Positions 3,846 to 63,785 of a stretch of 64,000 nt of DNA are shown piece after piece. The stretch comes from an uncultured Patescibacteria group bacterium (GTDB lineage Bacteria > Patescibacteriota > Minisyncoccia > Phycocordibacterales > UBA918): positions 289,033 through 353,032 of the forward strand of contig CAKUWT010000001.1 in NCBI GenBank assembly GCA_934699595.1. The letters run 5' to 3'. The translations under genes and the position numbers were made by a program. The first letter of the stretch is position 1. Every line of letters starts with the position of its first letter. The notes under the pieces were generated by a model, which saw nothing but the letters and a program-made list of their open reading frames with translations, did not search any database and had not been told where the DNA came from.

Positions 3846-3848
3846 ATT

Positions 3849-5102: not shown

Positions 5103-5116
5103 ATCAGTCGGACTAA

Positions 5117-8230: not shown

Positions 8231-8234
8231 ACTT

Positions 8235-8963
8235 CTAATTTTTCTTTAACCAACTTTTTACTTTCCTAATCACACCTATCAAACCCACCCGACGCAAGAC
8301 CTTCCGTAGACGGCGATATGGTACCCAGCTCTCCGCCCAGTGATTTTTTGTGTAAGCCAAAGATAGTTTTTCTGGTAGACATCGTTCGCCGTCGTCACAA
8401 GGGTTGAAATAGCGGTAATCAAAAACTTTCACCTCGGGGAAATTCTTGGTAGCCAGAACCTCAGTCACAATCATTGGTGAAGTACGCACAGTGTCTTTAG
8501 TAACTCCCCGTTCATATTCTGCCAACATGGCCTTAATGGCCGGGTGTTGCGACACCGCGCCGATCACTCCCGCGGCCGTCACGCCATCTTTAGTTTGTCC
8601 AAAAAAAGCTCGACTGGAAAGTAATGGTGATAGACTCTTTAAAACTTCGGTATCAGTATCCAAATAAATTCCACCATATTCTGCCAAGGCCCAAAAGCGG
8701 ACGTAATCGGAGACGAACGCCCAGCGCTTTTTAGCATACATCGCTCGCACGTAAGGATGATTTATCACCTCACTAGGAATAGTCTCCTCATTCCACAACC
8801 TTAATTCGTAGTCTGGCAAAAACTGTCGCCAGCTGGCCACACACCGTTCGGCTAGCGGCGTAAGCGGCTGACCACCCACCCAGACGTAGTGAATGATTTT
8901 AGGGATCAAAACTTTTTCCTGCTTATTTTCAATAGTCATTGTTATTTTTGATACACCTGCCAA
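8235..8963 (-). CDS. GT32-like glycosyltransferase (DXD sugar-binding region)
   Basis: The motifs IPKIIHYVWVGG ... YLDTDTEV match the Gly_transf_sug / Och1-like pattern. Confidence 0.5.
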   Translation of the reverse strand: MAGVSKITMTIENKQEKVLIPKIIHYVWVGGQPLTPLAERCVASWRQFLPDYELRLWNEETIPSEVINHPYVRAMYAKKRWAFVSDYVRFWALAEYGGIYLDTDTEVLKSLSPLLSSRAFFGQTKDGVTAAGVIGAVSQHPAIKAMLAEYERGVTKDTVRTSPMIVTEVLATKNFPEVKVFDYRYFNPCDDGERCLPEKLSLAYTKNHWAESWVPYRRLRKVLRRVGLIGVIRKVKSWLKKN

Positions 8964-9895
8964 GTATCCTCCACCATCTCCGTCAGGGTTTTCTTTGGCT
9001 GCCAGCCCAGCTCATTCTTGGCTTTAGTGGCATCAGCCACCACGGTATCTGGGTCGCCAGCGCGGCGAGGTGCTTCGTGAGTAATCACTACCTCCCCTGT
9101 CACCAAACTAAAAGTATTAACTAAATCCAGTACTGAATAGCCAGTGCCAGTACCCAGGTTGTAGGTATCACTCTTCTCACTCTCTAGTGCCAGTAAGTGA
9201 GCCTCAGCCAAATCCGCCAAGTGAATGTAGTCACGCACACCAGTACCATCTTTAGTAGTGTAATCATTGCCAAAGACCAGGAAGGGTAACTGCTCCTCTA
9301 CACTCTTGGCCAAAATCGGAAAAACGTTTTGGGCGTTGTCCTCGCGATAACTTAAGCCCGCATCTCCCGCCACGTTAAAGTAGCGCAAGGTAGTGAACTG
9401 CCTGATTTTACCTAGCCTGGCATAGGTCTGAATAGCTTCTTCGGTCATTAACTTGGTGAGACCGTACACACTCATAGGTGAAAGTGGTGAAGCTTCAGTG
9501 AGTGAGTCACCAAGAGGACTGGAGGCATACACGGCTGCCGTGGAGGAAAAAACTAGCTGCGGCACCGAAGCAGCTGACATCGCTTCTAATAAATTAAGCG
9601 AACCAACTACGTTATTATAAAAATATTGAGCCGGATCAGCTTCACTTTCGCCCACGGCTTTTTTGGCAGCGAAGTGCATGACGGCGTCAAAATGATGCTC
9701 GGCAAAAACTTTTTGCAGACAGACACGGTCGGTGAGGTCGCCAGTGATAACCTCAGCGCCAGCCGATACCTTATCTCGCTGACCAGTAGAAAAATTATCC
9801 AGCACCACCGCCTGATGCCCGGCCGCTATCAAAGCCTGCACGCACGCCGAGCCAATGTATCCTGCCCCACCAGTCACCAACACTTTTTTGTTCAT
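8942..9895 (-). CDS. galE: UDP-glucose 4-epimerase
   Basis: The N-terminus reads MNKKVLVTGGAGYIGS. The length, the YxxxK region and the SDR fold fit GalE. Confidence 0.75.
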   Translation of the reverse strand: MNKKVLVTGGAGYIGSACVQALIAAGHQAVVLDNFSTGQRDKVSAGAEVITGDLTDRVCLQKVFAEHHFDAVMHFAAKKAVGESEADPAQYFYNNVVGSLNLLEAMSAASVPQLVFSSTAAVYASSPLGDSLTEASPLSPMSVYGLTKLMTEEAIQTYARLGKIRQFTTLRYFNVAGDAGLSYREDNAQNVFPILAKSVEEQLPFLVFGNDYTTKDGTGVRDYIHLADLAEAHLLALESEKSDTYNLGTGTGYSVLDLVNTFSLVTGEVVITHEAPRRAGDPDTVVADATKAKNELGWQPKKTLTEMVEDTWQVYQK

Positions 9896-10725: not shown

Positions 10726-12210
10726 CTAATCAGCAAAAAAGCTCTTGGTGTCATCCTTGTAGACATCTGATTCTAATACTTCTCTATCGTCATTCTCTTT
10801 TCGAGACACCACAAAGATTCCTCCAATAACCAGTACCAGCAAGCCGCCAAGAGCCCAGTAACTCCAAGCAGTATCTCGCCTAGCAATCTCTTCTTCATCT
10901 CTCTCCAGGTCCTCTGCTTGCAGCCAAATCTCTTCTTGGCCAACTGTCTCTAATTTGACTGGTACCACCTCCTCATCACCGGCAAATGAGAATCTTTTGC
11001 CGTCTGCCATTGGTGACGCTGCCTGATTGCTAACACTGCCCACCGGCGCCTTGGCGACGCTCGCCACTAGTGCCGCTGGGTTGGTCTCTTTAGCGGTAGC
11101 AGTAATCTGCTTGCCAGTATTATCCCGCAACCAAATAGCATCGCGATTACTCAATCCCAAAATCACCGCCGGTAAAGTAATGGAACCATGCGCGGTCATG
11201 ATGGTGTCACGCGGAAAAGTAAAAACTTTCCGCGGGGTGACAATTTGGTAGTTACTAATATCGACCTCGTAGGCAGTATCATTAAAAATGGTCAGCCGAC
11301 CGTCGACCTGCAGTTGCCAAGAAAGTTTAACTGGCAATACTAGGATTTCATGACGCGCGGCCGCTTCGTAATCAGCATATTTAGCTCGCAGGGTAACAAT
11401 GTATTTACCGGGTTCGGTGAAAGTGTGAGTAACTTTTTCCAATCCGTCAAGAACAGCGAAGCCATCCCCAAAATTCCAGGTATAGCGCATCGATTGTAGG
11501 ATGGTATTTGGCATGCCGCCGATCTCTCGCCGCAGTGTAATCGTCTGTCCCACGTACGCCGCCTCACTGACAACAATTTCTAGACTAAGCTCGTTGGCGG
11601 GTAAGGTCACATTTGGGATAATCTTTTTTACCAGCTCAGCTGGCTTGATAGTCGTTGTTGTCTTAGAGCCAGAGTTGCCGCCAGCACCACTTTCTTTTGG
11701 CACACACTGCGACGGTGGTCCTAAGTCTGGATTAATATTGGCTTGTCCCGGAGTGGCGACCGCAGTCATCCAGCTGGTACTGGTACGCTGAGCGGTAGTT
11801 TTAGCCTTGTTGTCGCCACCAATCAAACACCAATCTTTACCGCCCACCACCCTATCCACCTCATTATCTTCCGCATCAAACATGACAACGGTGGCACCAG
11901 TATCCACCATAGCACCGGTGTAATCATCAGTCCTTTTTAAGACCAAATATTGACCACCTGAGATCTCTCCCTTCAAGGACTTAGCGCCAACTGAAATAGT
12001 TTCGTCATCCTGCCCTGTTTTTATAAAGCCAATTTTCCAACCTTCCAGACTAACAGTTTGATCCCCGTCATTATAAAGCTCCAACCACTCCTTAGTGCTA
12101 GCACCCTCCTCACCCATCCATGCTACTTCAGTAATAGTCACCGCCGCCTGGCCAAACTGAGGACAGAGAAAACTAAATAAAATCACGTTTCCTACTACCC
12201 ACCGTTGCAT
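10726..12210 (-). CDS. lamin-tail-domain (LTD) surface protein with a signal peptide, a beta-rich middle region and a C-terminal TM anchor
   Basis: The motif ITEVAWMG...KEWLELYN is the LTD signature. An N-terminal signal peptide and a C-terminal TM segment (WALGGLLVLVIGGIFVV) are present. The gap from the upstream ATPase gene is 6 bp. Confidence 0.55.
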   Translation of the reverse strand: MQRWVVGNVILFSFLCPQFGQAAVTITEVAWMGEEGASTKEWLELYNDGDQTVSLEGWKIGFIKTGQDDETISVGAKSLKGEISGGQYLVLKRTDDYTGAMVDTGATVVMFDAEDNEVDRVVGGKDWCLIGGDNKAKTTAQRTSTSWMTAVATPGQANINPDLGPPSQCVPKESGAGGNSGSKTTTTIKPAELVKKIIPNVTLPANELSLEIVVSEAAYVGQTITLRREIGGMPNTILQSMRYTWNFGDGFAVLDGLEKVTHTFTEPGKYIVTLRAKYADYEAAARHEILVLPVKLSWQLQVDGRLTIFNDTAYEVDISNYQIVTPRKVFTFPRDTIMTAHGSITLPAVILGLSNRDAIWLRDNTGKQITATAKETNPAALVASVAKAPVGSVSNQAASPMADGKRFSFAGDEEVVPVKLETVGQEEIWLQAEDLERDEEEIARRDTAWSYWALGGLLVLVIGGIFVVSRKENDDREVLESDVYKDDTKSFFAD

Positions 12211-12216
12211 AGTACT

Positions 12217-14283
12217 TTAGATAGTCTCAGGATTTTGTCCACTAAGGATTTTCCGTACTGCCTGTTGAGACGGTGCCTTCGACTGTCTGGCTTCGCTATT
12301 ACGCTTCGCTACTTCGAGAGCCTCGAGAGCCTTTTCTGCTTCCTCCAGTAAAACCTCTAGCTTGGCCATACTGGCATGGTCAGTCATGGCTAAGTTGGTT
12401 GCTAAGCTAGCACCAGCGTCACGAGAGCCAGTTTTAGATCTGTTCTTTTCAACTTTCGTAACTCTCTCTGATTGTTTAGAGTTCTGAGCCTCACTATCAT
12501 CCCCAACCTCATTCTTGGTCTCATTACTTTTTTCGGTGGCCTGAAGCACAGCCAGCGCAGCCTGTAATGATTTGCTCTCAGCCGCTTTTTTAGTAGGTGC
12601 ACCAGGATTGCTTTTGCGCTGCTCGTCGGCAGTGAGCTGTCGCAAGATATTTTTTAAATCATCCGATTCGCGAGGCGACTCTGGTCGCTTTGTCTCCGAA
12701 CGAGAATTGTCTCGCTTAGCAGAATTACGCCACTCCGCTGATGGTTTTTTTGAATCCATGCCACTATCTTCACGAGCGGTGCGATTATTTTGCGGAGTCG
12801 TCGCTCTCTCATCACGAGCCGCACTACTTCGCTCATTTTTTTGTGGCCGCTCATTTCGTTGACTTAAACGTGTGTCTTTGTCTTGCGAATTCCCTGCTCG
12901 TGACGACTCCTCACGAGCTCCACTTTCTCGTGGACGATTATCCGGACGTCTCTTCTCGTCTGGTCGTTTATTATTACTCTTCTCTGGACGTTCTGGATTA
13001 TGCAGCAAATTTACCAATTCTTCCACGTACGCTCGTGGTCGGGTGTAATTTTTCCGACTTGCCAAAATCGCCATCTGCTTATAAGAAATGCTCGGTGGCG
13101 ACAGTGGCGGCAAAGTAGTGGCAGAAAATGGCGCTGAACCAATCCCGTCAATCATTAACGACAAATAAATCTGCGCAAAGCCGAGGTTGATTAAATCGGC
13201 CGCCAGGAAAGTGGGAGTAAAAACTGTCTCCAGCACTTCCGCATCAAAAGGACCAACCCTAAAAGCAATGGTGGTACCAACGTTACCAAACACCGCATCC
13301 CGTACCTCCTCTTCCATCTGCTCAATGTACTGGTGAGCGATGATGAGATTCAGGTGATACTTCCGTGCCTCAGACAAAATGTCGGCAAAAGTAGCGTTAG
13401 CAAACGACTGAAACTCATCCACGTAAAAATAGAAGTTGGGCATCTTCCGCATCTGTTCGACAGACAAATCAGCCCGACTCATAGCGGCTAGATAAATACG
13501 AGTGGTGAGCATCGAGCCCAGTAAGTTAGCGTTAGTTTCCCCGATCAAACCTTTGGACAGATTCATAATGAGAATCTTTTTATTATCCATGATGTCACGA
13601 ATATCGAAGCTTGATTTCGGCTGTCCGATAATGTTGCGGATCAAGGGGTTGCCAGTAAACTGACCAATCTTGTTTTGGATAGCAGGCAGCGCTTCAGCAG
13701 CAAAGCGATCAGTGTAGTTAGCAAACTCATCCACCCAAAAAGATTTTACTGCGGGATCGGTAATGTAATCCACTACTTCCTGTCGATATTTTTTATCAGT
13801 AAAGAGTCGATTGACAGAAAGCAGAGTAGTATCGGGATACTCAATCAATGCCAACAGCGCATTGGTAAGAATGTACTCCATTCGCGCACTCCAAGCATCG
13901 ACCCAAATCTTTTTGAAGGTAGACATAAGTCCTGAGACCACCAGATGGCGCTTGTCTGGACCAACGTCTTCCATAACGTTAAAAGAAATCGGATTGTTTA
14001 AATCAAAAGGCGCAAAGTAAATCACATCATTCACTCGCTCTTCCGGAATATACTCCAGCAAAGTCTCAGCGGCACTACCGTGCGGATCAATAAAAGCCAT
14101 CCCTTCGCCATTTTGAATATCCTGTGCCGCCATGTTTTCTAACAAGGTCGACTTACCCATACCCGTCTTGCCGATGACATACATGTGTCGCTGACGATCC
14201 TTAGCCTTAATTCCAAATGAGACGGGTTGTCCGCGGGCGTCGGTCTTCGCAAAATAAGTGATTTTTTCTGGATCAAAGGCCAT
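12217..14283 (-). CDS. TraD/TraG/VirD4-like (AAA_10 / TraG-D_C type) P-loop ATPase with a roughly 260-aa low-complexity, highly charged C-terminal tail
   Basis: A Walker A motif (YVIGKTGMGKST) is present. The motif FYVDEFQSFANATFADILSEARKYHLNLIIAHQ resembles the TraD/TraG C-terminal region. There are no N-terminal TM helices. The last roughly 260 residues are R/E/K/S/N/D-rich. Confidence 0.5.
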   Translation of the reverse strand: MAFDPEKITYFAKTDARGQPVSFGIKAKDRQRHMYVIGKTGMGKSTLLENMAAQDIQNGEGMAFIDPHGSAAETLLEYIPEERVNDVIYFAPFDLNNPISFNVMEDVGPDKRHLVVSGLMSTFKKIWVDAWSARMEYILTNALLALIEYPDTTLLSVNRLFTDKKYRQEVVDYITDPAVKSFWVDEFANYTDRFAAEALPAIQNKIGQFTGNPLIRNIIGQPKSSFDIRDIMDNKKILIMNLSKGLIGETNANLLGSMLTTRIYLAAMSRADLSVEQMRKMPNFYFYVDEFQSFANATFADILSEARKYHLNLIIAHQYIEQMEEEVRDAVFGNVGTTIAFRVGPFDAEVLETVFTPTFLAADLINLGFAQIYLSLMIDGIGSAPFSATTLPPLSPPSISYKQMAILASRKNYTRPRAYVEELVNLLHNPERPEKSNNKRPDEKRRPDNRPRESGAREESSRAGNSQDKDTRLSQRNERPQKNERSSAARDERATTPQNNRTAREDSGMDSKKPSAEWRNSAKRDNSRSETKRPESPRESDDLKNILRQLTADEQRKSNPGAPTKKAAESKSLQAALAVLQATEKSNETKNEVGDDSEAQNSKQSERVTKVEKNRSKTGSRDAGASLATNLAMTDHASMAKLEVLLEEAEKALEALEVAKRNSEARQSKAPSQQAVRKILSGQNPETI

Positions 14284-14353: not shown

Positions 14354-15244
14354 TTACTGATTTAGGATATCCTGTTCAGACTTCTTTTTAGAAAAATAAA
14401 TCAGAAGAAAAGCAAAATAATAAATTAACACTACCGCCATTAGATACCAGTACTGATAATCAGAATCATAGTAATTACGATCACTCCTACTGAAAACCTT
14501 AAACACAAAGCTGCCATAAAGCATTATCAGCGGTGAAGAATAGACGGTAAATTTATAAAGATACAAATAAATTACGTCTCCTAAGCGAAAAGACAATAGG
14601 AGCGGGATTAGCAAAATCAGTAATAGTAAAGCTACCTCTGACAGCCCTATAATAAAATAGTCACAATTATAGCCCGACGGGTCAATTATTGGACATAAAC
14701 CTGTCACAGATATCACCACACTGGGCACCTGCAGAAATATAGCAACTAAAAACCAAATAAATGCCTTTCTCTTTAACCTTTTAACTAACAGAGGTTTCTC
14801 AATAGGCCCGTCTTCTACTTTTATTTTACCGCGCTTAATCCCGTAAGCAGTATAAATGATAACTCCTAATGAAATAAGTATATATGCCAAGCAAGCAAAC
14901 AGGGCAAAAATCATTTTGTAATTTATTCCCAACCAATCAGTCTCCACTACCGTAATTGCATAATAGATATAAATTAATAGCAGCGGTATAGCCACTGAAG
15001 CAAATTTAAACCATCTGAGAAAAACTAACTTATCAAATGGTAAAGTTAATAAGAGTGGCAGACTTAATAGGGTAAAGCTTAGTATGAGAGTGTAAGCATT
15101 CTCAAATGTTACGTAACACCGAAAACTATAAGTGTTGTTTGTTGAGCACAGATTACCCACTTCATAAAAGTACATAAAAATAACTACGGGCACGCAAGTA
15201 AGAAAAATCATCAAAAATGTCCACTTGCTAAATAACTTACTCAT
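14354..15244 (-). CDS. polytopic membrane protein (about 8 TM), hypothetical
   Basis: The hydropathy pattern is strongly hydrophobic. The gene shares a 5' leader motif with the next gene upstream. Confidence 0.45.
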   Translation of the reverse strand: MSKLFSKWTFLMIFLTCVPVVIFMYFYEVGNLCSTNNTYSFRCYVTFENAYTLILSFTLLSLPLLLTLPFDKLVFLRWFKFASVAIPLLLIYIYYAITVVETDWLGINYKMIFALFACLAYILISLGVIIYTAYGIKRGKIKVEDGPIEKPLLVKRLKRKAFIWFLVAIFLQVPSVVISVTGLCPIIDPSGYNCDYFIIGLSEVALLLLILLIPLLLSFRLGDVIYLYLYKFTVYSSPLIMLYGSFVFKVFSRSDRNYYDSDYQYWYLMAVVLIYYFAFLLIYFSKKKSEQDILNQ

Positions 15245-15325
15245 ATCAAATTAATTACCTATTAATTAGCCTAGGCCTCAGATCTGATCATATTATTACT
15301 TGGCTTTAATATTTTAAAATAAGGA

Positions 15326-15724
15326 TTATTTAGTCTTATTTTTCCTAGAATTATAAGCTGTGTGCACAGCTACCGCCAAAAAAGCTATAAAGTATGCCAG
15401 ATAAATAAAAGGCAGGAAGGCACTTAAAATATTATATCCTGAAAAATAACCTCCACCAATACTCAAAGCGACGGTTGTATAAGTAAAAATAATGGGAACA
15501 GTCACTAGTGTGAAAAAAGAGCAATTATCAAAAAATTTCCTACTAGAAAAAATAGACATGACACTAAGCGGTAAAACCAAGAAAAAACTCCCCAACAATG
15601 ACCAGGCTATGCTGTTGAGAAATTTATAATTATAGACTTCTCCCAAATAACCAAACCCAATGAAACAGACCAAAAATGTAAAGTTTATTAAAAATACATT
15701 TTTTCTATTTAAAAAATTATTCAT
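15326..15724 (-). CDS. small 4-TM membrane protein immediately downstream of the secreted lipase (candidate immunity/partner protein)
   Basis: Four hydrophobic helices in 132 aa. The gap from the lipase stop codon is 6 bp. Confidence 0.5.
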   Translation of the reverse strand: MNNFLNRKNVFLINFTFLVCFIGFGYLGEVYNYKFLNSIAWSLLGSFFLVLPLSVMSIFSSRKFFDNCSFFTLVTVPIIFTYTTVALSIGGGYFSGYNILSAFLPFIYLAYFIAFLAVAVHTAYNSRKNKTK

Positions 15725-15730
15725 ACCAAA

Positions 15731-18160
15731 TTAATTACCTATTAATAACCTCAATTTCAATTCCAATAGTTGAACAATCAGTTTTAATAGTTCGAGGTAT
15801 TGGGAGTTTGCTTCTATTTCCATTTTACGATCCTCAAAGTGGGTGATATATCCAACAGCTGAGGACCCGGAACTTACTGCCGGCCCCTTACCACCTTCCT
15901 CAAACAACGGTAGAGAAACTGGTCCAAGAAGTGATAGAGCGAGTTCTAGATCAGTAGCACCGTCACCATCATAATCAATAATTAAATCACCAGCTGCGGT
16001 AAGGCTACCATCGGGAAAATCCATACGAGCAAGTGTATCAGGATTGCTAGGAATACCCGAGAAAACACTGTAGTTAATTTGCGTATCCGCTTCGTATTCT
16101 TCTATTTCTAAGGTAAAAGAACCCTCATCGTAACCCGTTAAATAAATTGTGGGATTTGCCTCTTTTGGTAAAGACAGCATCTGCACCTCACCGAAGCGCT
16201 CATACCAGGCTCCAGGAATTTGAGAAACGTTTTGACCTATCTCATTACCACTCTCATCCACAGCTGAGAGATGTAGGGGCGAATGCAATATAAACTGTAG
16301 GCGGTTATCTTTATCGATTACTGGTTGAGCGCCATAGATATACTGAGGTAACGGTGAATTATATTCAAAGATAATATTTTTAAAGATAAAATCATTTAAC
16401 TGTCTTAGGTCAAGAAGATTATGATGACCTTTCCTCAACAAGTCAGGGAGTTCAATTCCAAGAAATCTATTGTAACTATCCAAATCCACCCACCACCTAC
16501 TCACACCTTCACCGTCACCAATAGCCAAAGCGCTCGGCGCCACCACTGTTCCATCACCGTCGTAGACAATTCTTGGTTTGTACGACAGGACTTCTGAGGA
16601 ACAAATTTTAGTAAAGAAATTAACAACTTTTGTAACAAGTTCCCTACAGTCTTCAATGCCCTTATAATCAATACCCGCCAAAGTAGCTTCGCCCACGCCA
16701 GCAATTTGATGTATCTCTATTTCTGGAGGTGGCTCCCAGGCACCTATTTTATTTTGGGCAACTTGAGCGGCCTTAATCAATACTGAATTACCAACTACTG
16801 GTAATTTTAAGTTCGAGCTAGGGGGCTGAGTGCGTCCCTCTGTACCCACCAAAAAATCATGCAGCTCATTAGGAGTAATCGCATAGCCAAATTTATCAAT
16901 AAAAGCTTGAGTAGCGAGACGATCATCAAAAGTTACATAGGGAGTGTAAATACTACTGCCAACACTACCGTAATAATTAGCGAACGGTAATAACTGATAC
17001 ATCCCTGGCATATTGCGAGCAATGTCTCTCGCCCTCTCATCTTTTAATGTGCCTAAAATACCGACCTCATACCCATGCAATAAAGCACCAATAGTTTTAG
17101 GTGTCCCCAGCTGTGGTGTCCCTACCATTACTAATTTATCTACCAAATCTGCCGCCTCACTACCAAGCTCACTCAATAAATACTTGGCTAATAATCCCCC
17201 TTTAGAGTGAGCCACTATTGAAACCTTCCCCGTTGGTGATGAAGCCGCTAAATCACGTAAATTATTTTCAATACTGCCGTCACTTAAAATATCTGAAAAG
17301 GAAAGCCGCCAATCGTAAGGCATCGCCAGATAATCAGTAATCTTACTATTGTTTTTATAATTTTCTAAATCTGCCAAAAAAGATTTGTAAATGTCCACAT
17401 TAAGCAACCCGTGAAAAGTATCAACAACCTCCTTGGCAGTAATACTATTTAGACTTTGTCCTACTTCGTTCAGGTATAGTCTTTGGACATGAGAATCCCC
17501 ACCCTCCCAACGCTGAATTTCTCCTTCAAATAAACGGCTGCCCATAAACCCCGGCAAGAAAAGTACATTTGATACTAAGTCTGAGTTCTCAGTTACAGTA
17601 AATGTAATGGACCGAGTATGAATTGGTTCAGCCTCGTCTGCATAAGCTATAGGGAATAACTGGGTAAAAAGATTAAGGAAACGATTAGATTTATTGAGAG
17701 TTAGGTAACCCTCATAAGAAACTAGAGTATAAGTACCTGTAATAAACTCAGGTAGAGGCTCACCCTCCACTAATACATTTTGGTAGCTACCTCCTTCATG
17801 TCTAAATACCTCTATGTCTAGGTAATTGTAATCAAAATCAGGCGCTATTTTGTAATTGACATACTCACTTAGCCCACCAACAGGAACTTGGATAATAGCC
17901 CCCTGAGTAACTGTTTGTCCATTCAAAGTAATCTGGTGTGGGTAATGTGCATCATTAACTACCTCGACATTAAATGGATTGTTACAATCGAATACCGGAG
18001 TTGTGACTGGCCCCTGCACATAGGAACCGCCATGAACCCAGCTCCAAAAATCTGAACTAATGTTTCCACAGCCGGACTGAGCTCCTGCTAACTGCACCGA
18101 CAGTAGAAGAACTACTAGCAGAGAGCTTGTTAGCTTAATGAGACTTAAAATTCTATTCAT
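15731..18160 (-). CDS. secreted LCAT-like / PGAP1-like alpha/beta-hydrolase (phospholipase/acyltransferase family), about 809 aa
   Basis: A signal peptide (MNRILSLIKLTSSLLVVLLLSVQLAGAQS) is present. The motifs LFLPGFMGSRL and YLAMPYDWRLS (YDWR) and the nucleophile elbow VSIVAHSKGG (GHSxG-type) are present. DGDGTVVAPS is a candidate catalytic Asp. A paralog lies at 61410-63785. Confidence 0.65.
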   Translation of the reverse strand: MNRILSLIKLTSSLLVVLLLSVQLAGAQSGCGNISSDFWSWVHGGSYVQGPVTTPVFDCNNPFNVEVVNDAHYPHQITLNGQTVTQGAIIQVPVGGLSEYVNYKIAPDFDYNYLDIEVFRHEGGSYQNVLVEGEPLPEFITGTYTLVSYEGYLTLNKSNRFLNLFTQLFPIAYADEAEPIHTRSITFTVTENSDLVSNVLFLPGFMGSRLFEGEIQRWEGGDSHVQRLYLNEVGQSLNSITAKEVVDTFHGLLNVDIYKSFLADLENYKNNSKITDYLAMPYDWRLSFSDILSDGSIENNLRDLAASSPTGKVSIVAHSKGGLLAKYLLSELGSEAADLVDKLVMVGTPQLGTPKTIGALLHGYEVGILGTLKDERARDIARNMPGMYQLLPFANYYGSVGSSIYTPYVTFDDRLATQAFIDKFGYAITPNELHDFLVGTEGRTQPPSSNLKLPVVGNSVLIKAAQVAQNKIGAWEPPPEIEIHQIAGVGEATLAGIDYKGIEDCRELVTKVVNFFTKICSSEVLSYKPRIVYDGDGTVVAPSALAIGDGEGVSRWWVDLDSYNRFLGIELPDLLRKGHHNLLDLRQLNDFIFKNIIFEYNSPLPQYIYGAQPVIDKDNRLQFILHSPLHLSAVDESGNEIGQNVSQIPGAWYERFGEVQMLSLPKEANPTIYLTGYDEGSFTLEIEEYEADTQINYSVFSGIPSNPDTLARMDFPDGSLTAAGDLIIDYDGDGATDLELALSLLGPVSLPLFEEGGKGPAVSSGSSAVGYITHFEDRKMEIEANSQYLELLKLIVQLLELKLRLLIGN

Positions 18161-18234
18161 AATATTATAAGCGACAATAAATCTCTTTTTAAAACCAAGC
18201 GGCGGGCACCGAAGGTGTCCGCCGCTTAATCCCC

Positions 18235-19788
18235 CTATCTCCCGAAACGTTCCTCCGCGTAACGCAGTAAATCTTTCACATCTTGATTGCGGTGTTTGGA
18301 GTTGAGAATCACCACCGCCACTACTCGACTCTGGTCACCCACCCTTAAAGTATGGAGAGAGACTGAAGTTTGCCCGGCGGCCGTAGTCTCTCCGATCTTA
18401 CCTCCAAGGAAGTTTTCCAACGACTCTACTTTATTAAAGTTCAGCAACTTACCAAACTCACCGCTAGTGTAGATGGTTGGCAAATCTTGGTTGGCGGTTA
18501 AGTCTAAGATAAACCGGCGATGTTTGTAGATATATTGAGTCAGCTGAAATAGGTCTCGGACCGAAGATACATTACCATCACCAAGCCCAGACGGATCCAC
18601 AAAATGGGTGTCGCTCATTCCCAAGCGCTCAGCCATTTCATTCATTTTTTTGATAAAATCTTCTCTGCCGAGCTGGGCCGCGATCACTTCTGCTGATTCG
18701 TTTGACGATTCAATTAAAAGCAGCTGCATCAAACTAAACATTGACACTCGAGAACGATCGCCCAACCGGGGCACTAAGGATTGCACGAAGGTGGGCTGGG
18801 AGACCGTTACGGAACTGTCGAGGTTAATATACTCTGAAGCAATCAAAGCAGTCATCAGTTTAGTCAGTGAAGCAATTGGTACTGCGGCGTCTAGATCACT
18901 ACTAGCGAGAATGGTATTACTCTCAACATCGGCGATTAAGTAATGTGGGGTTTCGAGAGAAGGAATTTTCGGCTGATAAACAAAGGCGTCTGCCGGTGCC
19001 GCTTCTTCATGTACCAAAACTGGGGTGTTGATTGCTACTTGTTTATACAGAGCTTTAGCGTCGGCATCACTTAGGCGGATGCACCCCCCCTGATAATCAT
19101 CGGCCACTTTTTCTCCTGGAGACACCTCTGGCGTACCGTGAATCATGAAATTACCTTGAAAGCCCAGACTCCAAGGTTGGTAAATCTGACTAAAGTTAGA
19201 AAAATTACGCTCCTTTTTTGACTCCACCTGGTACAAGCCTGCTGGGGTCTCACACCAAGAGCTGATTGGAGCTTTAGTGAGGATCGGATACTGCACAGAG
19301 ATATTGCCACCCTCGTAATAACGCAGGCGCATTTTAGCCAAATCCACCTCTAAAAAAGTCCGACCCGCGTTGATAAAGCTGTCTCGCGTTTCGTTAAAAA
19401 AGTACGGCTCGGCAAAGATACCCTGAATACCGTAATTTAACGGGGTTTGCTCACCGGTATAGGGGTTTTCAATCACTAATGGAGTATCAGCTTTAGCTGT
19501 CAGCCACTCACTACCAATGGCTGCCAGCATCCCTCCGCTAGGTAGCGAGAGCGGTGTGAAGCTTAAAATGACCGCCAACATTAATCCTGGAATCAAAAAT
19601 AGTAGCGGCGTTAGTGCCGCTAGTTTTAAGCTGGCTGCTTTATTATCTAAAGAGACTGACTGTGGTGAAAAACGCTTTGGTAGCGAAATTAAGCGACCCT
19701 GATCAACCGTGGTCTCACTATCACTCTGATAACTCACCGCCTGAAAGCGTTTAGAGCCTTTCTCGCTACTGTCCATGCTCCTTATCAT
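18235..19788 (-). CDS. membrane-anchored fusion of an L,D-transpeptidase (YkuD) domain and an S11-like serine DD-peptidase / beta-lactamase-fold domain
   Basis: The LDT motif is IHGTPEVSPGEKVADDYQGGCIRLSDADAKALY. Downstream are SLTK (SxxK), SSN (SxN) and KIGET (a degenerate KTG). An N-terminal TM segment is present. The likely start is MIRSMDSS at 19788; the track ORF extends to 19860. Confidence 0.55.
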   Translation of the reverse strand: MIRSMDSSEKGSKRFQAVSYQSDSETTVDQGRLISLPKRFSPQSVSLDNKAASLKLAALTPLLFLIPGLMLAVILSFTPLSLPSGGMLAAIGSEWLTAKADTPLVIENPYTGEQTPLNYGIQGIFAEPYFFNETRDSFINAGRTFLEVDLAKMRLRYYEGGNISVQYPILTKAPISSWCETPAGLYQVESKKERNFSNFSQIYQPWSLGFQGNFMIHGTPEVSPGEKVADDYQGGCIRLSDADAKALYKQVAINTPVLVHEEAAPADAFVYQPKIPSLETPHYLIADVESNTILASSDLDAAVPIASLTKLMTALIASEYINLDSSVTVSQPTFVQSLVPRLGDRSRVSMFSLMQLLLIESSNESAEVIAAQLGREDFIKKMNEMAERLGMSDTHFVDPSGLGDGNVSSVRDLFQLTQYIYKHRRFILDLTANQDLPTIYTSGEFGKLLNFNKVESLENFLGGKIGETTAAGQTSVSLHTLRVGDQSRVVAVVILNSKHRNQDVKDLLRYAEERFGR

Positions 19789-19849
19789 ACCGTATTTATT
19801 AATTTTTTTCCGAGACTTTTGTACAGGTGACTTGTGTATAAAACTGAGC

Positions 19850-19895
19850 CTAATAAACAAAAAAGACGCCGGGGAGCCCTGGCGTCTTGGTTTTT
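19850..19895. terminator. bidirectional rho-independent terminator
   Basis: The hairpin agacgccgggg-agc-cctggcgtct is flanked by A-run/T-run on both strands. Confidence 0.5.
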
Positions 19896-19925
19896 GACTG
19901 TTTACAAAAACAGGCTAAGAAGTGG

Positions 19926-20135
19926 CTAGAGGTCGACAACAATCCCCCGTCGGCTCAGCTCCTTTCGAGCTGCCACCACAAATTCGTGCTGATTCACGAA
20001 TTTACGATGCCGATTTCGATTCAGATAATTGGATAATCGCACATACAAATCCTCATCGGTACACTGACATAAGCAATTCCTGGCCGAATCGATCAGCTCT
20101 GATTTTTCCTGGCGGTCCTTATGAAGTTCAAGCAT
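19926..20135 (-). CDS. small hypothetical protein (69 aa)
   Basis: The ORF composition is charged and mixed. A terminator lies 39 nt downstream on the same strand. Its status is uncertain. Confidence 0.25.
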   Translation of the reverse strand: MLELHKDRQEKSELIDSARNCLCQCTDEDLYVRLSNYLNRNRHRKFVNQHEFVVAARKELSRRGIVVDL

Positions 20136-20229
20136 CTTCCTCTCCCTCTGCTAAGCATGTCAAGAACACATTGGTTCCATATATTTTTATAGCACAAAAG
20201 ATAACCTCTGCCTAGTAACTGATTACTCC

Positions 20230-21576
20230 CTACTCCACTTCGTAGACGCCTGGTGCTTTTAGGGCAGCTTTGGTGTAGCGATTACCAGGATCCCAAATCA
20301 TCCAATCCATTACGCCCGCGTCGTAACTAGCCTGGATTTGGGTACGCACTTCAGCTGGACCATAAATACCGCCGTAGTTAAAATCCTGAATCCAGGTACG
20401 AAGTTTACGATGATCGTAGCCAGGCTTCTCATATATGGCCGGAGTCGAGGTACCTACTCGCTGATAGGCAAAACTCTCTAAAGCAGTAGTGGTGGCTTTA
20501 GTCCTAGTCAGGGCAGCGCTCATAGAGTGTTCAACAATCCGGTACGGAATAGTGTTGGGATTATCCACCCCCAAGAAACCGCGTGGATAATGAGACGGAT
20601 ACACCATTGGCGCCACCGCATCGAAGTATGGCAACGCCCGTTCAAGAACCTGTCCAATTGATAGATCATCATGATTAGTGGCAGTCATACCAAACAAATC
20701 CACCGAGGTGTACGGGGTGGCCAATTCACGACCGGTATTTTCGTGTCGATAAGCGGTAAACTTCTCCGGCTTAGATAACTCTTCATGTAGATAACGGAAA
20801 AAAGCCTCCAGATTAGCCTGCTTATCGCCCGGCCACTCCGACTGCTCTGTGTAGGTAAAGGCGATATCTGTCATATTACCGTCAGAAGGATAGCGAACGT
20901 AGTCGTAGTTCAGTTCATCAAAACCGACGTTGTAGGCATCTACACTCAAGCTGACAACTTTCTCCCAGTAGGGCTTAGCCGCTACATCAATAAAGGCCAA
21001 GCCTTTATGGTCGCGCCAAACTGTCTGTCGATCACTTTGCTTCACGGCTAGCTCCGGATGCTTATTAGTGAAGAAGGGATCTTGAAAGACAGTCACACGA
21101 CCAATCACATAGATTCCCAGCTTGTGTAAACTAGCGATGAATTCGCGCATGTCGCGTGCGCCACACTCAGCCGCCTGCCAGGCTCCTTCCCACTCAGGAT
21201 TCTCAGGCGCAAAAGAAATATGTCCAGAGTAGTCTTTGATATCAATTACGATACTATTAACCTCAGTTGAAGTTACTAAATCCACCACCTGCTGCCGAAA
21301 GGTAGGCGTACCTACCACACAAGCGGTCATATAGACTGCCTTCACCTGCTTTGGTAATGGTTGATGTGCTACTACCGTGCGCTCATCTGTCTGATTATCC
21401 CGGTCTAATTCTCTCTGACTAGACTCTGTCAAGGCAGTGGCTTCATCAGTTTGTAAAGAGGCTGATTCATAGGTCACCTTGTTACCGAGCCCACCACCCC
21501 ACCAGCCGTAAGCTACTAGAGCAAAGCCAAAGGCCGCCATCATCGCTAACCCTAAAATACCATAACGCTGTTTCAT
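20230..21576 (-). CDS. membrane-anchored putative glycoside hydrolase (TIM-barrel, DUF4015/GHL-like)
   Basis: An N-terminal TM segment is present. Overall similarity to DUF4015-type putative glycosyl hydrolases (VIGRVTVFQDP...FDELNYDYVRYP). Confidence 0.35.
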   Translation of the reverse strand: MKQRYGILGLAMMAAFGFALVAYGWWGGGLGNKVTYESASLQTDEATALTESSQRELDRDNQTDERTVVAHQPLPKQVKAVYMTACVVGTPTFRQQVVDLVTSTEVNSIVIDIKDYSGHISFAPENPEWEGAWQAAECGARDMREFIASLHKLGIYVIGRVTVFQDPFFTNKHPELAVKQSDRQTVWRDHKGLAFIDVAAKPYWEKVVSLSVDAYNVGFDELNYDYVRYPSDGNMTDIAFTYTEQSEWPGDKQANLEAFFRYLHEELSKPEKFTAYRHENTGRELATPYTSVDLFGMTATNHDDLSIGQVLERALPYFDAVAPMVYPSHYPRGFLGVDNPNTIPYRIVEHSMSAALTRTKATTTALESFAYQRVGTSTPAIYEKPGYDHRKLRTWIQDFNYGGIYGPAEVRTQIQASYDAGVMDWMIWDPGNRYTKAALKAPGVYEVE

Positions 21577-24654: not shown

Positions 24655-24710
24655 AGATTTTAATATTATCAGATATAGATTGATCTGTCATAAAAAATGG
24701 AGCCGTAGCC

Positions 24711-60438: not shown

Positions 60439-60888
60439 CTACCTCCCCGCCAGTCTCTTCCACAGATATTTTACTACCAAAATTAGGTACGGGATTAAAA
60501 CAAACAGCACGGTGACCGCAATAAGAATCAGAGCACCGATAGCTAGAGAAAATTGGGAATCAGTAGGAATGGGAGAAAAACCGATCTGCTGCCGATTCGC
60601 CGTAAGAGTCAGAACAATATAAAGTGGTATATACCAAATTCCAAAATATTTCCACCACTGCTTATAGGTTACTGTTCGCACCAGCAGCAAGAGTGCTTGA
60701 GATATTAGTATAGCTACAGACAAGGCGTATACATAACTTAAATTTGAACCGACTCGAAGTGGGTACAAAGAAATATTATTCTTCTCTGGCAAAAGATATC
60801 TTATAAAAAGAAAGAACAAAAGTACGATAATAAAAATTACGTATTTATTAAGAACTGATTGGATAGTATTTTCTAGTAATTTTTTCAT
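60439..60888 (-). CDS. small 4-TM membrane protein, tandem paralog B (candidate immunity/partner of lipase 2)
   Basis: The start is taken at MKKLLENT, matching the paralog. Nucleotide identity to 60943-61389 is about 85-90%. Confidence 0.5.
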   Translation of the reverse strand: MKKLLENTIQSVLNKYVIFIIVLLFFLFIRYLLPEKNNISLYPLRVGSNLSYVYALSVAILISQALLLLVRTVTYKQWWKYFGIWYIPLYIVLTLTANRQQIGFSPIPTDSQFSLAIGALILIAVTVLFVLIPYLILVVKYLWKRLAGR

Positions 60889-60942: not shown

Positions 60943-61389
60943 TCACCCTACTCTCTTCCGCCACAAATACTTTACTACAAAAATTAAGTGTGGGATTAGG
61001 ACAAACATCGATGTGACCGCAATAAGAATCAGAGCACCGATAGCCAGAGAGAATTGGGGATCAGTAGGAATGGGAGAAAAACCAATCTGCTGTCTATTCG
61101 CCGTAAGAGTCAGGAAAATATAAAGTGGTACATACCAGGCTCCAAAATACCTCCACCACTGCTTATAGGTTACTGTTCGCACCAGTAACAAGAGTGCTTG
61201 GGATATTAGTATAGCTACTGATAGAGCGTATACATAATCCAAGGTGGTTCCTACCCGCAGTGGGTAAAGGGAGAGTACGTTTCCTTCCGGAAGTAGCCAT
61301 TTTATCAAAAGGAAGAACAAGAGTGTAATAATAAAGATCATATATTTATTAAGAGCCGATTGGATGGTATGTTCTAGTAATTTTTTCAT
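60943..61389 (-). CDS. small 4-TM membrane protein, tandem paralog A
   Basis: MKKLLEHTIQSALNKYMIFIITLLFFLL... Four hydrophobic helices. The gene lies 20 bp downstream of the lipase 2 stop. Confidence 0.5.
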   Translation of the reverse strand: MKKLLEHTIQSALNKYMIFIITLLFFLLIKWLLPEGNVLSLYPLRVGTTLDYVYALSVAILISQALLLLVRTVTYKQWWRYFGAWYVPLYIFLTLTANRQQIGFSPIPTDPQFSLAIGALILIAVTSMFVLIPHLIFVVKYLWRKRVG

Positions 61390-61409: not shown

Positions 61410-63785
61410 TTAAATAAGCCTAGCTTCCAATAAAAGTTTTAGCTGTAGTAACAACTCAAAAAGCTGTTTATATAACTCTATTAGATTGTCTGATTCCAGA
61501 TCACTTTCAGCTACCAGAGGCAAATACCCTCCTCCTGAATTACGCGAGGTCGGTTCTTCAAGCAGATCACTCATAACAGACAAATCGTTCCAACTGTATA
61601 CCTCGTCAATAATGCTATCTCCATCAAAATCAGTTGCAATATCAGAAAACTGCTCTGTTGAAGAATAAGATAAAAATGCCTGTGTATTACTAGAAACTGG
61701 AGTGTAGCCTAAAATATTAACCAACTCCTGAAATCCGTCGTTAAGTGTATGAGCGGTGAGGGCATAATAACCATCATCGGTACCCTGAAGAGCCACCTCA
61801 TAATTACCATTGTCCGGTATTAGAAGGTACTTACTCTCACCTAATTCTAAATAGCGGGAACCAGGAATATCCTCAAGGATATTCCCCTCACTAATACCAG
61901 CCGTCCTGCCTTCCTCATCAGTAACGATAATCTCTACTGGAGAATGAGCGCCCAGTAGCAGCTGTGGCTGTTTTAAAACTAATGGAACCGTCGGCAATTC
62001 TGAATCACCTTTAAAAAGATGGTCAAGAATTTCTATGACCCCATCACTGGACATCATACTTGAGTGATTAACTTCATCCGGAGCAAGATCAACGGTGAAA
62101 CTATTCTTACTACCTAAATACCCCGTAGCCGACTTAACCGCCACAGTTCCATCTCCCCAAACATCAAAATACGGAATTACTTTGAGAGCGGCTAAATCTC
62201 CATTACTATCTGAACAAATTAATAGAGCTACTAGTGGATTACACGGTAGCCTGGTGTAATAAAGTCCAGACAAGGTCGGTAGGTCTCTACCCGCAATTTC
62301 ATAAACCTCGACCTCATCCGGAAAGATAAAGTCTTCCAGTAAGACCTGATCAGGGCCAGCTTGGTTTAATAATCCAATATTAACGTTAGTTGGTCGATTA
62401 AGGCTGACACTCTCGCTTGGAGATGGGCGAGAAGTGTTATTTAAAAAAGCTTCTAGTATGGTTCGGTTGTCTATAGCCGTATTACCGACATAACTATTAG
62501 TTAGCTCCGATCCGTCGGTCTTGATTAGGGCTGGGAATTGATAAGTAGCAAAATATTTCTGACTTGGTAGTAAACTATACGCTACCGGAAAATTTCTCAC
62601 CGCTTCTCGGTTGACACTTCTGCTAGAAAGCAAGTTCTTTAGCCAGTTACTCTCGTAACCATGTAACAACTTAGCCAAAGTTTCTGAAGCGCCATACTGT
62701 GGCGTACCCACCATAATAAAATTATCAACCTTACTTTTGAGACTCTCACCATATTCAGCAAACAGGGCCTTGCCCAGCAAGCCGCCATTAGAATGACCGA
62801 CGATAGTAACCTTGCCAGTTTTTGAAGAAGCCGCCAGTCTCTCTATTTCATCTACCAAATACTTAGTTTCATTCTGATACTGAGTACCATTTTTCACGAT
62901 GCTCGAGACATCATAACGCCAGTCGTAAGCATAGATACCGAAATCATTAATAAACTTTTCAGTATTTTTATACGTATCCAATTTATTGATAAAGGTGTCG
63001 TAAATATCAACCACGGAGTAGGCTTTACGTAAAACATCATTTGTCTTGGTATAAATATTATTTAAACTCTGACCAGTTTCATCCATCATTAATTGTCTTA
63101 CGTCAGTATTACCAAATGGTAGCCAGCGTTCAAACTCTTTTCCTTGCACGCCTTCATAAAGATAACTCCCTTGTATTCCCGGAATGAATAAAATATTGGA
63201 ACCTCCAACCTCTTTCTCCTCCCTAACTACAAACGTGACTCCGTAAAGCATATTCCCCCAATCAGCGTGTGCGGTCGGGATGATAGCGTTTTTTAACCAA
63301 TTCCAGTAGGGGTGACGGTAATTAACTACCACTCTTTGGTCGATTAAAAGTGTGTAAACTCCGGGAGTAAAAACATAGCGGTCAAGGTCATCAGTGGCTA
63401 CCTCATAAAAATCATCACCTCGGTGATGAAATAACCTAAAGTATCGCCATTGAAAAAAGTCTGGATCGGTAACAAAAAAGTAACTAGTATTAGTGTCTAG
63501 GAAAATCTCTGAATCAGCCTCTAAGATTTGATCGTTTAGGAAAACTGCATGGGGTAGATCCCATCCCTCATTATCGAGAAAAAAAGGATTAGCGCAATCA
63601 CTTTCAAGACCTTGGTATTCATTTTTACTAGAGTTAAATGTATAGACAGTACAAGCTTGAGCGGTTGGAGCAAAAAGAAAGAAGATTAATGAGAGGAGGG
63701 TTAAAATAAGTAATTTAATACCGAAAAATCTAGTCGGCTGAAAAACTCTGTTAACTGTTTTAGGAATACCGCTAGTTATTATCAT
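61410..63785 (-). CDS. secreted LCAT-like / PGAP1-like alpha/beta-hydrolase (phospholipase/acyltransferase family), paralog of 15731-18160, about 791 aa
   Basis: A signal anchor/peptide (...LILTLLSLIFFLFAPTAQA) is present. The motifs ILFIPGIQGSYLYEG, IYAYDWRYDV (YDWR), VTIVGHSNGGLLGKALF (GHSxG), WGDGTVAVKSA (Asp) and EVNHSSMMS (His candidate) are present. The C-terminal Leu-rich tail is shared with the other copy. Confidence 0.65.
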   Translation of the reverse strand: MIITSGIPKTVNRVFQPTRFFGIKLLILTLLSLIFFLFAPTAQACTVYTFNSSKNEYQGLESDCANPFFLDNEGWDLPHAVFLNDQILEADSEIFLDTNTSYFFVTDPDFFQWRYFRLFHHRGDDFYEVATDDLDRYVFTPGVYTLLIDQRVVVNYRHPYWNWLKNAIIPTAHADWGNMLYGVTFVVREEKEVGGSNILFIPGIQGSYLYEGVQGKEFERWLPFGNTDVRQLMMDETGQSLNNIYTKTNDVLRKAYSVVDIYDTFINKLDTYKNTEKFINDFGIYAYDWRYDVSSIVKNGTQYQNETKYLVDEIERLAASSKTGKVTIVGHSNGGLLGKALFAEYGESLKSKVDNFIMVGTPQYGASETLAKLLHGYESNWLKNLLSSRSVNREAVRNFPVAYSLLPSQKYFATYQFPALIKTDGSELTNSYVGNTAIDNRTILEAFLNNTSRPSPSESVSLNRPTNVNIGLLNQAGPDQVLLEDFIFPDEVEVYEIAGRDLPTLSGLYYTRLPCNPLVALLICSDSNGDLAALKVIPYFDVWGDGTVAVKSATGYLGSKNSFTVDLAPDEVNHSSMMSSDGVIEILDHLFKGDSELPTVPLVLKQPQLLLGAHSPVEIIVTDEEGRTAGISEGNILEDIPGSRYLELGESKYLLIPDNGNYEVALQGTDDGYYALTAHTLNDGFQELVNILGYTPVSSNTQAFLSYSSTEQFSDIATDFDGDSIIDEVYSWNDLSVMSDLLEEPTSRNSGGGYLPLVAESDLESDNLIELYKQLFELLLQLKLLLEARLI

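Follow-up and report, generated by a model that had tools for sequence, protein, structure and literature searches.

How might a bacterium that makes no lipids of its own attack or harvest the membranes of a host without damaging its own membrane? The question is raised by a locus in a 64,000-nucleotide (nt) stretch of DNA, hereafter the window, from an uncultured Patescibacteria group bacterium (GenBank assembly GCA_934699595.1, contig CAKUWT010000001.1, positions 289,033 to 353,032 of the forward strand). The locus consists of three open reading frames (ORFs), all on the minus strand as a first-pass annotation of the sequence had placed them: an 809-amino-acid (aa) lipase (lipase 1; 15731..18160), a 132-aa protein with four transmembrane (TM) helices (15326..15724) and a 296-aa membrane protein (14354..15244). 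A second, related module is located near the far end of the window. The results described below firmly support the view that each module is an autonomous, co-inherited cassette, made up of an exported LCAT-type enzyme and one or more cognate 4-TM proteins. The cassette is a candidate for the way in which lipid-dependent bacteria attack or harvest host membranes while leaving their own intact.

Lysolipids are the class of product to be expected of enzymes of the phospholipase A (PLA) type. They have been reported to be enriched in bacteria of the Candidate Phyla Radiation (CPR) (Probst 2020, as cited in PMC8080830 and PMC11665869), and for another CPR bacterium it has been proposed that a secreted phospholipase serves to harvest lipids (PMC8080830). 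According to a 2024 review, Patescibacteria have no lipid synthesis of their own, and their mechanism of lipid uptake or breakdown has not been identified (PMC11665869). The two-gene cassette is a concrete candidate and a widespread one: the enzyme has at least 586 matches in species-representative genomes, and the partner forms about 1,500 clusters at 50% identity. For the enzyme, a definite chemistry can be predicted, and the residues predicted to be catalytic can be mutated. Be it that of a guard or of a lipid-presenting subunit, the role of the partner would be informative about the ways in which episymbionts breach host membranes or feed on them.

The exported enzyme

Profile score, motifs and fold all place lipase 1 in the LCAT family of Pfam. 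Its match to PF02450 is well above the cut-off (E 1.8e-20, 74 bits, cut-off 21), and the same domain is present in all 120 of the lipase homologues listed. Of the LCAT, PGAP1 and DUF676 profiles named in the first-pass annotation, only LCAT is matched significantly; the PGAP1 score (PF07819) is 17.5 bits, under the cut-off of 24.3, and the scores against DUF676 and DUF900 are also under their respective cut-offs.

The four motifs on which the original assignment was based are all present, each encoded on the minus strand. The YDWR motif (aa 282-285; 17306..17317, codons checked) aligns with the PYDWR of human lysosomal phospholipase A2 (LPLA2, PLA2G15). The predicted nucleophile is Ser319 (codon 17204..17206), which stands in the A-H-S-K-G of AHSKGG (aa 317-322) and aligns on Ser165 of LPLA2. 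The predicted triad acid, Asp536 (codon 16553..16555), belongs to a DGDGTV motif (aa 534-539) that aligns with the DGDGTV of LPLA2, whose triad acid we take to be Asp327. His579 (codon 16424..16426) is the predicted triad base, and its order and invariance suggest that it is the counterpart of the triad histidine of LPLA2 and LCAT. In a profile alignment of the lipase family with the LPLA2 entries 4x90 and 4x92, PYDWR falls on PYDWR, DGDGTV on DGDGTV and VaHSNGG on VAHSMG, and the column of Ser319 holds an alanine in 4x92, which is the S165A mutant. Ser319, Asp536 and His579 are invariant in 40 of 40 aligned homologues and in 71 of 71 lipases from independent genomes, so the loss of the triad that was to count against the assignment was not seen. 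The Y, D and R of YDWR are likewise invariant in the 40 homologues and in the 71 locus lipases, and the W is kept in 70 of the 71.

The fold agrees with this assignment. An AlphaFold model built on 40 homologues (predicted local distance difference test 83.9, predicted template-modelling score 0.74) shows, after the signal sequence (aa 1-27), a beta-rich domain (about aa 30-192) followed by an alpha/beta-hydrolase of the LCAT/LPLA2 type (about aa 195-600). Behind the hydrolase come a beta-sandwich (about aa 615-745) and, past a disordered linker, an amphipathic helix (aa 784-808). A Foldseek search of the PDB, which bore out the expected likeness to LPLA2 and LCAT, returned LPLA2 first (E 2.5e-13, template-modelling score 0.68-0.69 normalised to the target) and then LCAT (0.60-0.64), and the top 11 matches were all one or the other. 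Tle4 followed (E 1.4e-9, template-modelling score 0.39) and then PlaB of Legionella; the PGAP1 structure 8k9t was a weak match. LipA-type lipases of family I.1/I.2 gave weak sequence matches around the nucleophile elbow.

Lipase 1 carries an N-terminal export signal. Its first 27 residues (MNRILSLIKLTSSLLVVLLLSVQLAGA, followed by QS; 18080..18160, minus strand) coincide with a hydropathy peak at aa 1-28, and the cleavable signal peptide claimed earlier can be read by eye from the sequence as a positive n-region, an 18-aa hydrophobic core and a cleavage-type site, A-G-A|QS, after A27. Hydropathy and the AlphaFold model give no TM domain beyond this signal. An N-terminal hydrophobic segment is present in 99 of the 120 homologues and a TM-like segment elsewhere in just four, and none of the 120 has a 4-TM domain fused to it.

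Both ends of the protein vary within the family, in which lengths range from 642 to 1375 aa. The N-terminal region is swapped among members and can be a beta-helix, NosD, SpaA-like, Ig-like, DUF5018, HYR or MBG domain. At the other end, aa 784-808 of lipase 1 (15737-15811) form a leucine-rich amphipathic helix after a disordered Gly/Ser linker. Both lipases of the window have such a helix after a linker (YLELLKLIVQLLELKLRLLIGN in lipase 1 and LIELYKQLFELLLQLKLLLEARLI in lipase 2), and similar tails occur in a subset of the homologues, the others having unrelated beta-rich or helical ends. Membrane association and coiled-coil tethering are possible roles for this helix. Taken together, the sequence and the model firmly support the prediction that lipase 1 is an exported serine hydrolase or acyltransferase of the LCAT/LPLA2 type.

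The membrane partners

The 132-aa gene begins with an ATG 6 nt past the TAA stop of lipase 1, as the first-pass annotation had observed. Its product has four hydrophobic helices by hydropathy, which the AlphaFold model places at aa 7-27, 33-58, 62-89 and 97-131. After a gap of 81 nt comes the 296-aa gene, whose product has about eight hydrophobic segments. The helix counts given earlier are therefore right; however, these are not two different proteins, since the first is a single 4-TM unit and the second contains that unit twice. The 296-aa protein consists of two units fused in tandem (about aa 1-148 and 150-296), each a homologue of the 132-aa protein: its N-terminal half matches the C-terminal half of L002_284 (E 3e-26), and its C-terminal half matches the N-terminal half of that protein (E 5e-14). 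In close relatives with the same flanks and a lipase 63% identical to lipase 1, the matching site is occupied by one 147-aa unit or by one 284-aa two-unit fusion.

A profile of the family gives E 3.5e-11 for the 132-aa protein in a search of 5.8 billion sequences and 1.2e-23 in an exhaustive search, and E 3e-38 for the 296-aa protein. A word-indexed search with this profile found only 13 proteins, and an exhaustive search was required to show the size of the family, which came to 1,502 clusters at 50% identity with E <= 1e-3 and 480 with E <= 1e-10. The best 150 of these clusters are nearly all stand-alone proteins of about 110-190 aa, most of them of 126-150 aa. Six are of 212-285 aa, of which five are two-unit-sized (271-285 aa); none in the best 150 is fused to another domain, and none is longer than 285 aa. 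Because the profiles match hundreds of clusters, the possibility that the small membrane genes are chance ORFs was rejected.

In members of the family the N-terminus has a TKK and the C-terminus is basic; loop 1 contains a cysteine pair, loop 3 is rich in glycine and a serine in helix 4 is conserved. A further shared feature is the motif SLITYxM[RK][DE]EVFxxWxxFAxWxVP, which runs from the end of helix 2 into helix 3. The cysteine pair, although typical of the family, is absent from the 132-aa protein and from the 148-aa and 149-aa partners of the second module. From the distribution of charges, the predicted topology is N-in/C-in, with loops 1 and 3 facing outward. These outer loops average about 19 and 10 aa, respectively. 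Loop 1, which is acidic and carries the cysteines, is the least conserved region, and the N-terminus and the cytoplasmic-side loop 2 are the most conserved. The family alignment has no conserved charged or polar residue in the membrane core.

Comparison with Pfam, NCBIfam and solved folds gave no significant relative. A few partners had noise-level matches to a 3-TM holin family (best E 0.037, three of 46 members), and no sequence similarity to the TM domain of PGAP1 was detected. The Lipocone/VanZ superfamily was considered as a home for the partners and dropped, VanZ being absent from the Pfam scan matches, and a cluster look-up of the window proteins returned no protein names. The partner is a large family of membrane proteins without an existing description.

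The first-pass annotation also described an identical 5' leader before the two membrane genes. The identity is exact: the 19-nt sequence TTAATAGGTAATTAATTTG occurs exactly twice in the window, where no occurrence is expected by chance. Copy 1 (15727..15745, minus strand) covers the end of the lipase gene, namely its final codons (L-I-G-N) and stop, together with the spacer that leads to the 132-aa gene, and copy 2 (15247..15265, minus strand) directly precedes the 296-aa gene. Since copy 1 is the end of the lipase gene, and since a further 60 nt or so upstream of copy 2 have a weaker similarity to the lipase 3' end, the repeat is a duplicated lipase-end/partner-start junction, and a dedicated regulatory leader common to both genes was rejected. 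The approximately 60 nt before copy 2 are the relic of a lost or recombined lipase gene end, which indicates that the 296-aa gene either formerly stood behind a lipase gene or was copied along with the end of one.

Conservation of the pair

The linkage of hydrolase and small membrane gene is conserved wherever it could be assessed, and with the LCAT match and the intact triad this means that none of the three outcomes named in the first-pass annotation as refuting its idea was observed. A scan of one genome per species found the lipase relatives counted above, and 80 were kept for examination of their loci. The organism labels, which were taken from record titles of metagenome-assembled genomes (MAGs), assign 75 of the 80 to Patescibacteria/CPR lineages or leave them unclassified ('bacterium') and assign the remaining five to Bdellovibrionales or Acidimicrobiales. 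Seventy-one loci were assessable, meaning that the lipase ORF is complete and downstream DNA is present; the others end within the lipase gene or, in one case (L071), 3 nt past its stop. In all 71, an ORF of 127-284 aa with 3-5 TM helices starts between -26 and +47 nt from the lipase stop, and in 11 of them its start overlaps the stop by 4 nt. By the family profile, the directly adjacent ORF is a partner in 70 of the 71. In the remaining locus (L080) a 5-TM ORF from outside the family intervenes, and a partner gene is found about 1 kb downstream of the lipase.

The same result was obtained from the opposite direction. Three of three reverse look-ups from partner proteins had an LCAT gene directly upstream, and the other neighbours were wholly different. 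A partner-based scan of metagenome contigs, which used a narrow alignment and samples mainly a Moranbacteria-like subfamily, gave 82 assessable partner genes; 54 are directly behind an LCAT gene and 16 are in arrays behind one, so that 70 of the 82 are lipase-linked. Twelve were scored as orphans, but one of these follows a divergent LCAT/PGAP1-like gene and several are redundant copies of one locus. The distinct orphans number about seven and adjoin genes for a transposase, zeta toxin, lytic transglycosylase, AlaRS or MurB. For example, one directly follows an IS30-type transposase gene (L108:1606-2622) and another a zeta-toxin gene (L118:1537-2235).

About one in five loci has a second or third partner copy, some of them fragmented, and tandem lipase-partner modules were also found. 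At one locus (L102:4486-8388) a partner gene is directly upstream of a complete module, giving the order partner-lipase-partner. Pairwise identities of the lipase core and of the partner are correlated (r = 0.67, Mantel p = 0.001), and the partner has diverged about twice as much as the lipase. Several genomes contain at least two diverged modules, among them the genome of the window and those represented by L017/L020, L026/L027, L024/L043 and L077.

The second module

A paralogous module at 60.4-63.8 kb had been noted earlier, and it does consist of a second lipase and two partner genes, all on the minus strand. Lipase 2 (61410..63785, 791 aa) is 30% identical to lipase 1 (E 3e-70) and has YDWR at aa 287, GHSNGG with Ser332, GDGTV with Asp545, and His574. 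It matches Pfam LCAT (E 7.6e-13, 48.9 bits, cut-off 21) and, at 39 bits (E 9.7e-10), is also over the PGAP1 cut-off of 24.3. The first partner gene (60943..61389, 148 aa, one 4-TM unit) begins 20 nt past the lipase 2 stop. The second (60439..60888) is an ORF of 149 aa from an ATG at 60888, or of 159 aa if an alternative upstream TTG at 60918 is used, and it too matches the family profile. The two partners are 82% identical to each other; in the search of 5.8 billion sequences, their E values against the family profile are 4e-9 (148 aa) and 7e-10, and in the exhaustive search that of the 148-aa protein is 3.1e-28.

Possible functions of the pair

The reading that we favour is a host-directed phospholipase guarded by an immunity-like 4-TM partner, and we put the probability of this full mechanism at about 0.42. 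The enzyme would be exported via Sec to the cell surface, its variable N-terminal domain would bind a host or neighbouring cell, and its catalytic core would remove or transfer acyl chains of the phospholipids in the membrane of the target cell. This would damage the target membrane and yield lysolipids and fatty acids that the lipid-auxotrophic CPR cell could use. The partner would reside in the membrane of the producer, with about one copy for each enzyme molecule, and would prevent the enzyme from hydrolysing that membrane, most likely by engaging the membrane-binding or lid surface of the enzyme through its own outer loops and helices. Protection by a protein would be necessary, since a membrane of host-derived lipids is chemically indistinguishable from the target. 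Extra, fused and orphan partner copies would broaden the protection to paralogous enzymes or to those of neighbours.

The target of the enzyme would be outside the cell, and most plausibly a host or competitor membrane, because the variable N-termini are adhesin-like, several diverged paralogues occur in small genomes, the enzyme has kinship with Tle4 and a PF02450 gene is found in a vgrG island of Pantoea. Self-protection is favoured because a monoderm cell built of host-type lipids cannot use lipid chemistry to spare itself, because the partner arrays, fusions, orphans and relic junction resemble the dynamics of immunity genes, and because the outward loop is the variable part of the partner. 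The rapid divergence of the partner relative to the enzyme would also be an immunity-like trait.

Several points weigh against this reading. Known Tli proteins cap the active site of their lipases, and a 4-TM protein with outer loops of about 19 and 10 aa offers little exposed surface. Conservation of the partner peaks at the N-terminus, at the cytoplasmic-side loop 2 and at the start of helix 3 (EVFxxWxxFAxWxVP), not in the outward loops. The near-universal one-to-one linkage and the translational coupling would be just as compatible with an obligate enzyme subunit. Among the partner genes, about 10% are orphans beside housekeeping genes such as those for AlaRS and MurB, and these could have a role independent of a lipase. 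Finally, the substrate could be the cell's own lipids, lipoproteins or glycolipids.

A serious alternative, which accounts for the data almost as well and which we consider possible but tentative, is that the pair is a split PGAP1-like enzyme. The 4-TM protein would be an obligate subunit that docks the exported lipase on the producer membrane and forms with it a joint lateral cavity, through which a specific membrane lipid would be raised into the active site. Acting in cis, the complex would remodel or (trans)acylate lipids scavenged by the cell itself, or its lipoproteins or glycolipids, and would spare bulk lipids. This would account for the near-universal linkage with its frequent translational coupling and for enzymes that have no membrane anchor of their own, and the two-unit fusions would be 8-TM platforms. 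The PGAP1 score of lipase 2 (E 9.7e-10) and the weak Foldseek match to 8k9t point in the same direction, and the order of lipase, beta-sandwich (aa 615-745) and 4-TM protein matches that of PGAP1 (PMC10761859). However, a pure subunit would not be expected to occur as an orphan or to be kept behind a relic lipase end, and large, swapped, adhesin-like N-termini and several diverged paralogues per small genome would be odd for a housekeeping enzyme acting in cis. A lipase-4-TM fusion is found in none of the 120 lipases, the best 150 partner matches are all of 285 aa or less, and the partner has no invariant intramembrane polar residue that would suggest substrate handling. The split-enzyme idea accounts for the near-obligate coupling and for the anchorless enzymes, and less well for the orphans, arrays and swapped adhesin domains. 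Immunity and docking are not mutually exclusive.

It is also conceivable, although unlikely, that the cassette is the missing lipid-acquisition device of Parcubacteria, in which the LCAT-like surface enzyme would act on the host membrane as a transacylase or phospholipase A. Together with the 4-TM partner it would make up a lateral lipid gate like that of PGAP1, which would pass acyl chains or lysolipids into the cell's own bilayer and also shield that bilayer from hydrolysis. If true, this would explain both the enrichment of lysolipids and the building of membranes by bacteria that synthesise neither fatty acids nor phospholipids.

Lipid translocation by small 4-TM proteins that act as dimers has precedents, such as the SMR-like ArnE/ArnF and the GtrA-type proteins. 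On this precedent, the lipase might make lysolipids and fatty acids outside the cell, and a dimeric or oligomeric 4-TM partner might flip or insert these products into the symbiont membrane. Such an uptake pair would fill the unmet need for a lipid acquisition route in Patescibacteria (PMC11665869), and units that are duplicated in tandem or fused head to tail would be in keeping with a transporter that works as a dimer. We nevertheless consider it improbable; no resemblance in sequence or fold to SMR, GtrA or another transporter family was found for the partner, its membrane core lacks conserved residues of a charged or polar kind and its fast divergence would be unusual for a transporter of generic lipids. 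A helper that aids the folding, release or surface retention of the lipase in a foldase-like or holin-like manner, with neither a catalytic nor a protective part, is very improbable, because the precedent of the lif gene directly downstream of family I.1/I.2 lipases (which, as noted, weakly match the nucleophile region) involves a protein with one TM helix and a large periplasmic domain, whereas the partner has almost no extracytoplasmic mass, because the lipase has its own Sec-type signal and would not need a holin-type exporter and because the few holin matches, at a best E of 0.037 in three of 46 members, are not significant. Neither the uptake nor the helper idea receives positive support from sequence or fold.

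Genomic setting and other features of the window

The neighbours of module 1 (10726-14283 and 18235-21576) are in a conserved order in the two relatives with lipases 63% identical (L001 and L002): DUF4015, a YkuD+Peptidase_S11 fusion, the lipase module, a TrwB/TraG-like ATPase and a lamin-tail/PKD surface protein. The ATPase, which has a long low-complexity tail, is encoded 70 nt away from the 296-aa gene and is the next gene downstream. In more distant genomes the cassette neighbours are unrelated.

A GC-rich hairpin followed by TTTT (18191..18227, minus strand) can be read from the sequence 3' of the upstream YkuD/Peptidase_S11 gene. It was not among the results of a terminator scan, and its T-run is short. 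The transcript of that gene probably ends at this hairpin, in which case the lipase and partner genes would be a unit of their own. Directly upstream of the lipase ATG, a consensus scan found a promoter-like site (TTTAAA, 18 nt, TATAAT; 18164..18193, minus strand; 10 of 12 matches), which is weak evidence given that the regional count of such sites is not above the shuffled expectation.

Both modules are AT-rich, with a GC content of 0.31-0.41 vs. 0.46 +/- 0.05 elsewhere in the window; part of this difference may be due to the codons that hydrophobic proteins require. Module 2 ends 82 nt from a tRNA-Pro(GGG) gene on the opposite strand (60285-60356), which adjoins a 107-aa ORF (59737-60060) without a Pfam match. 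The tRNA gene, the 107-aa ORF and the low GC of module 2 could together mark an insertion site.

The rRNA genes of the window are unlinked (16S at 29638-31097, 5S at 49736-49845 and 23S at 51240-54518), the 16S being about 20 kb from the 23S. The CPR origin presumed at first fits with this arrangement and with the labels of nearly all the relatives, which are Patescibacteria or Parcubacteria. The 23S match spans 3,279 nt vs. 2,925 nt for the model, which suggests that the gene has one or more insertions, and a 143-aa ORF (50631-51062) is present between the 23S and 5S genes. From about 32000 to 38500 the GC content is 0.53-0.58 vs. about 0.46 elsewhere, and overlapping ORFs, most of them starting with GTG or TTG, occupy both strands. 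No Pfam match was obtained for the two largest ORFs tested there (32020-33390 and 33448-34083).

A membrane protein with a VTT/DedA domain is encoded at 27197-27736. The VTT/DedA family is linked to lipid scrambling, and this protein may be relevant to lipid handling in the organism. Ten genes for envelope polysaccharides are present at 471-9895, including GT25, GT-D and GT4 glycosyltransferases, FkbM-type methyltransferases, a flippase-like Polysacc_synt protein and an epimerase, and Mur ligase genes are present at 23311-26895.

Comparison with known systems

The closest relatives of lipase 1 in fold and motifs are LPLA2 and LCAT (PF02450), which have the alpha/beta-hydrolase fold and the PYDWR, AHS-x-G and DGDGTV motifs in the same order. 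The identity to them is only 13-16%, and lipase 1 is bacterial and has a Sec-type signal. It also has an additional N-terminal beta-rich domain, a C-terminal beta-sandwich and a tail helix, and it is always encoded with a 4-TM partner.

PGAP1/Bst1 (PF07819, PDB 8k9t) has a related lipase domain, and its order of lipase domain, beta-sandwich and TM helices is the domain and gene order seen here. In PGAP1 a lipase domain, a jelly-roll and TM helices are combined, and the TM domain and the lipase cooperate in holding the acyl chains and in avoiding off-target hydrolysis (PMC10761859). However, PGAP1 is a single polypeptide with 10 TM helices, whereas the cassette has a separate 4-TM protein or an 8-TM two-unit fusion. 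The cassette is not PGAP1 itself; its lipase has no TM domain, its TM part is a separate gene and none of the 120 homologues is fused.

The first-pass annotation saw in the locus the classic layout of the type VI lipase effectors and their immunity proteins, Tle and Tli. Some of this likeness is real. After LPLA2 and LCAT, Tle4 of the Pseudomonas aeruginosa Tle4-Tli4 pair (PDB 4r1d) is the next structural match (E 1.4e-9), it has the motifs PGIMG-x-x-L and KV-x-x-V-x-HS-x-GGL in common with the lipase family, and both systems place a cognate gene beside the lipase gene. The extra and orphan partner copies are of a kind common for immunity genes. A PF02450 gene has also been reported in a vgrG island of Pantoea (PMC3942780). 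In contrast, no type VI secretion families (vgrG, hcp, PAAR) are present in the related loci or among the annotated ORFs of the window, which lie outside the stretch from about 34 to 58 kb. Known Tli proteins are soluble or lipid-anchored in the periplasm and are not four-helix integral membrane proteins. Export of the lipase by a signal peptide, an integral 4-TM partner with short loops in place of a soluble periplasmic one, and a template-modelling score to Tle4 of just 0.39 also separate the two, and membership in Tle/Tli was rejected, as was the claim of a classic layout.

The LipA-Lif pairs of Pseudomonas and Burkholderia likewise have a secreted lipase gene followed by a gene for a membrane-anchored partner. 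In family I.1/I.2 lipase operons, the helper Lif is encoded directly downstream of the lipase; it crosses the membrane once, by an N-terminal TM helix, and wraps the lipase with a large helical domain in the periplasm. The partner of the cassette is a compact four-TM bundle with outer loops of about 19 and 10 aa, and LipA/Lif membership was rejected.

The immunity proteins of pore-forming colicins are small inner-membrane proteins with 3-4 TM helices, which are encoded beside the toxin, evolve fast, occur in extra copies and act in the membrane of the producer. By general description the partner is like them, being a small polytopic protein encoded beside a candidate toxin gene. However, the colicins in question are pore formers, not lipases, and no relation in sequence or fold to their immunity proteins was found for the partner.

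In the literature we found no report that links LCAT or PF02450 with Patescibacteria or Parcubacteria, or that describes the partner family or the pair. A secreted lipase with a cognate neighbouring protein is a known kind of system; what is new here is the partner family and the phylogenetic setting.

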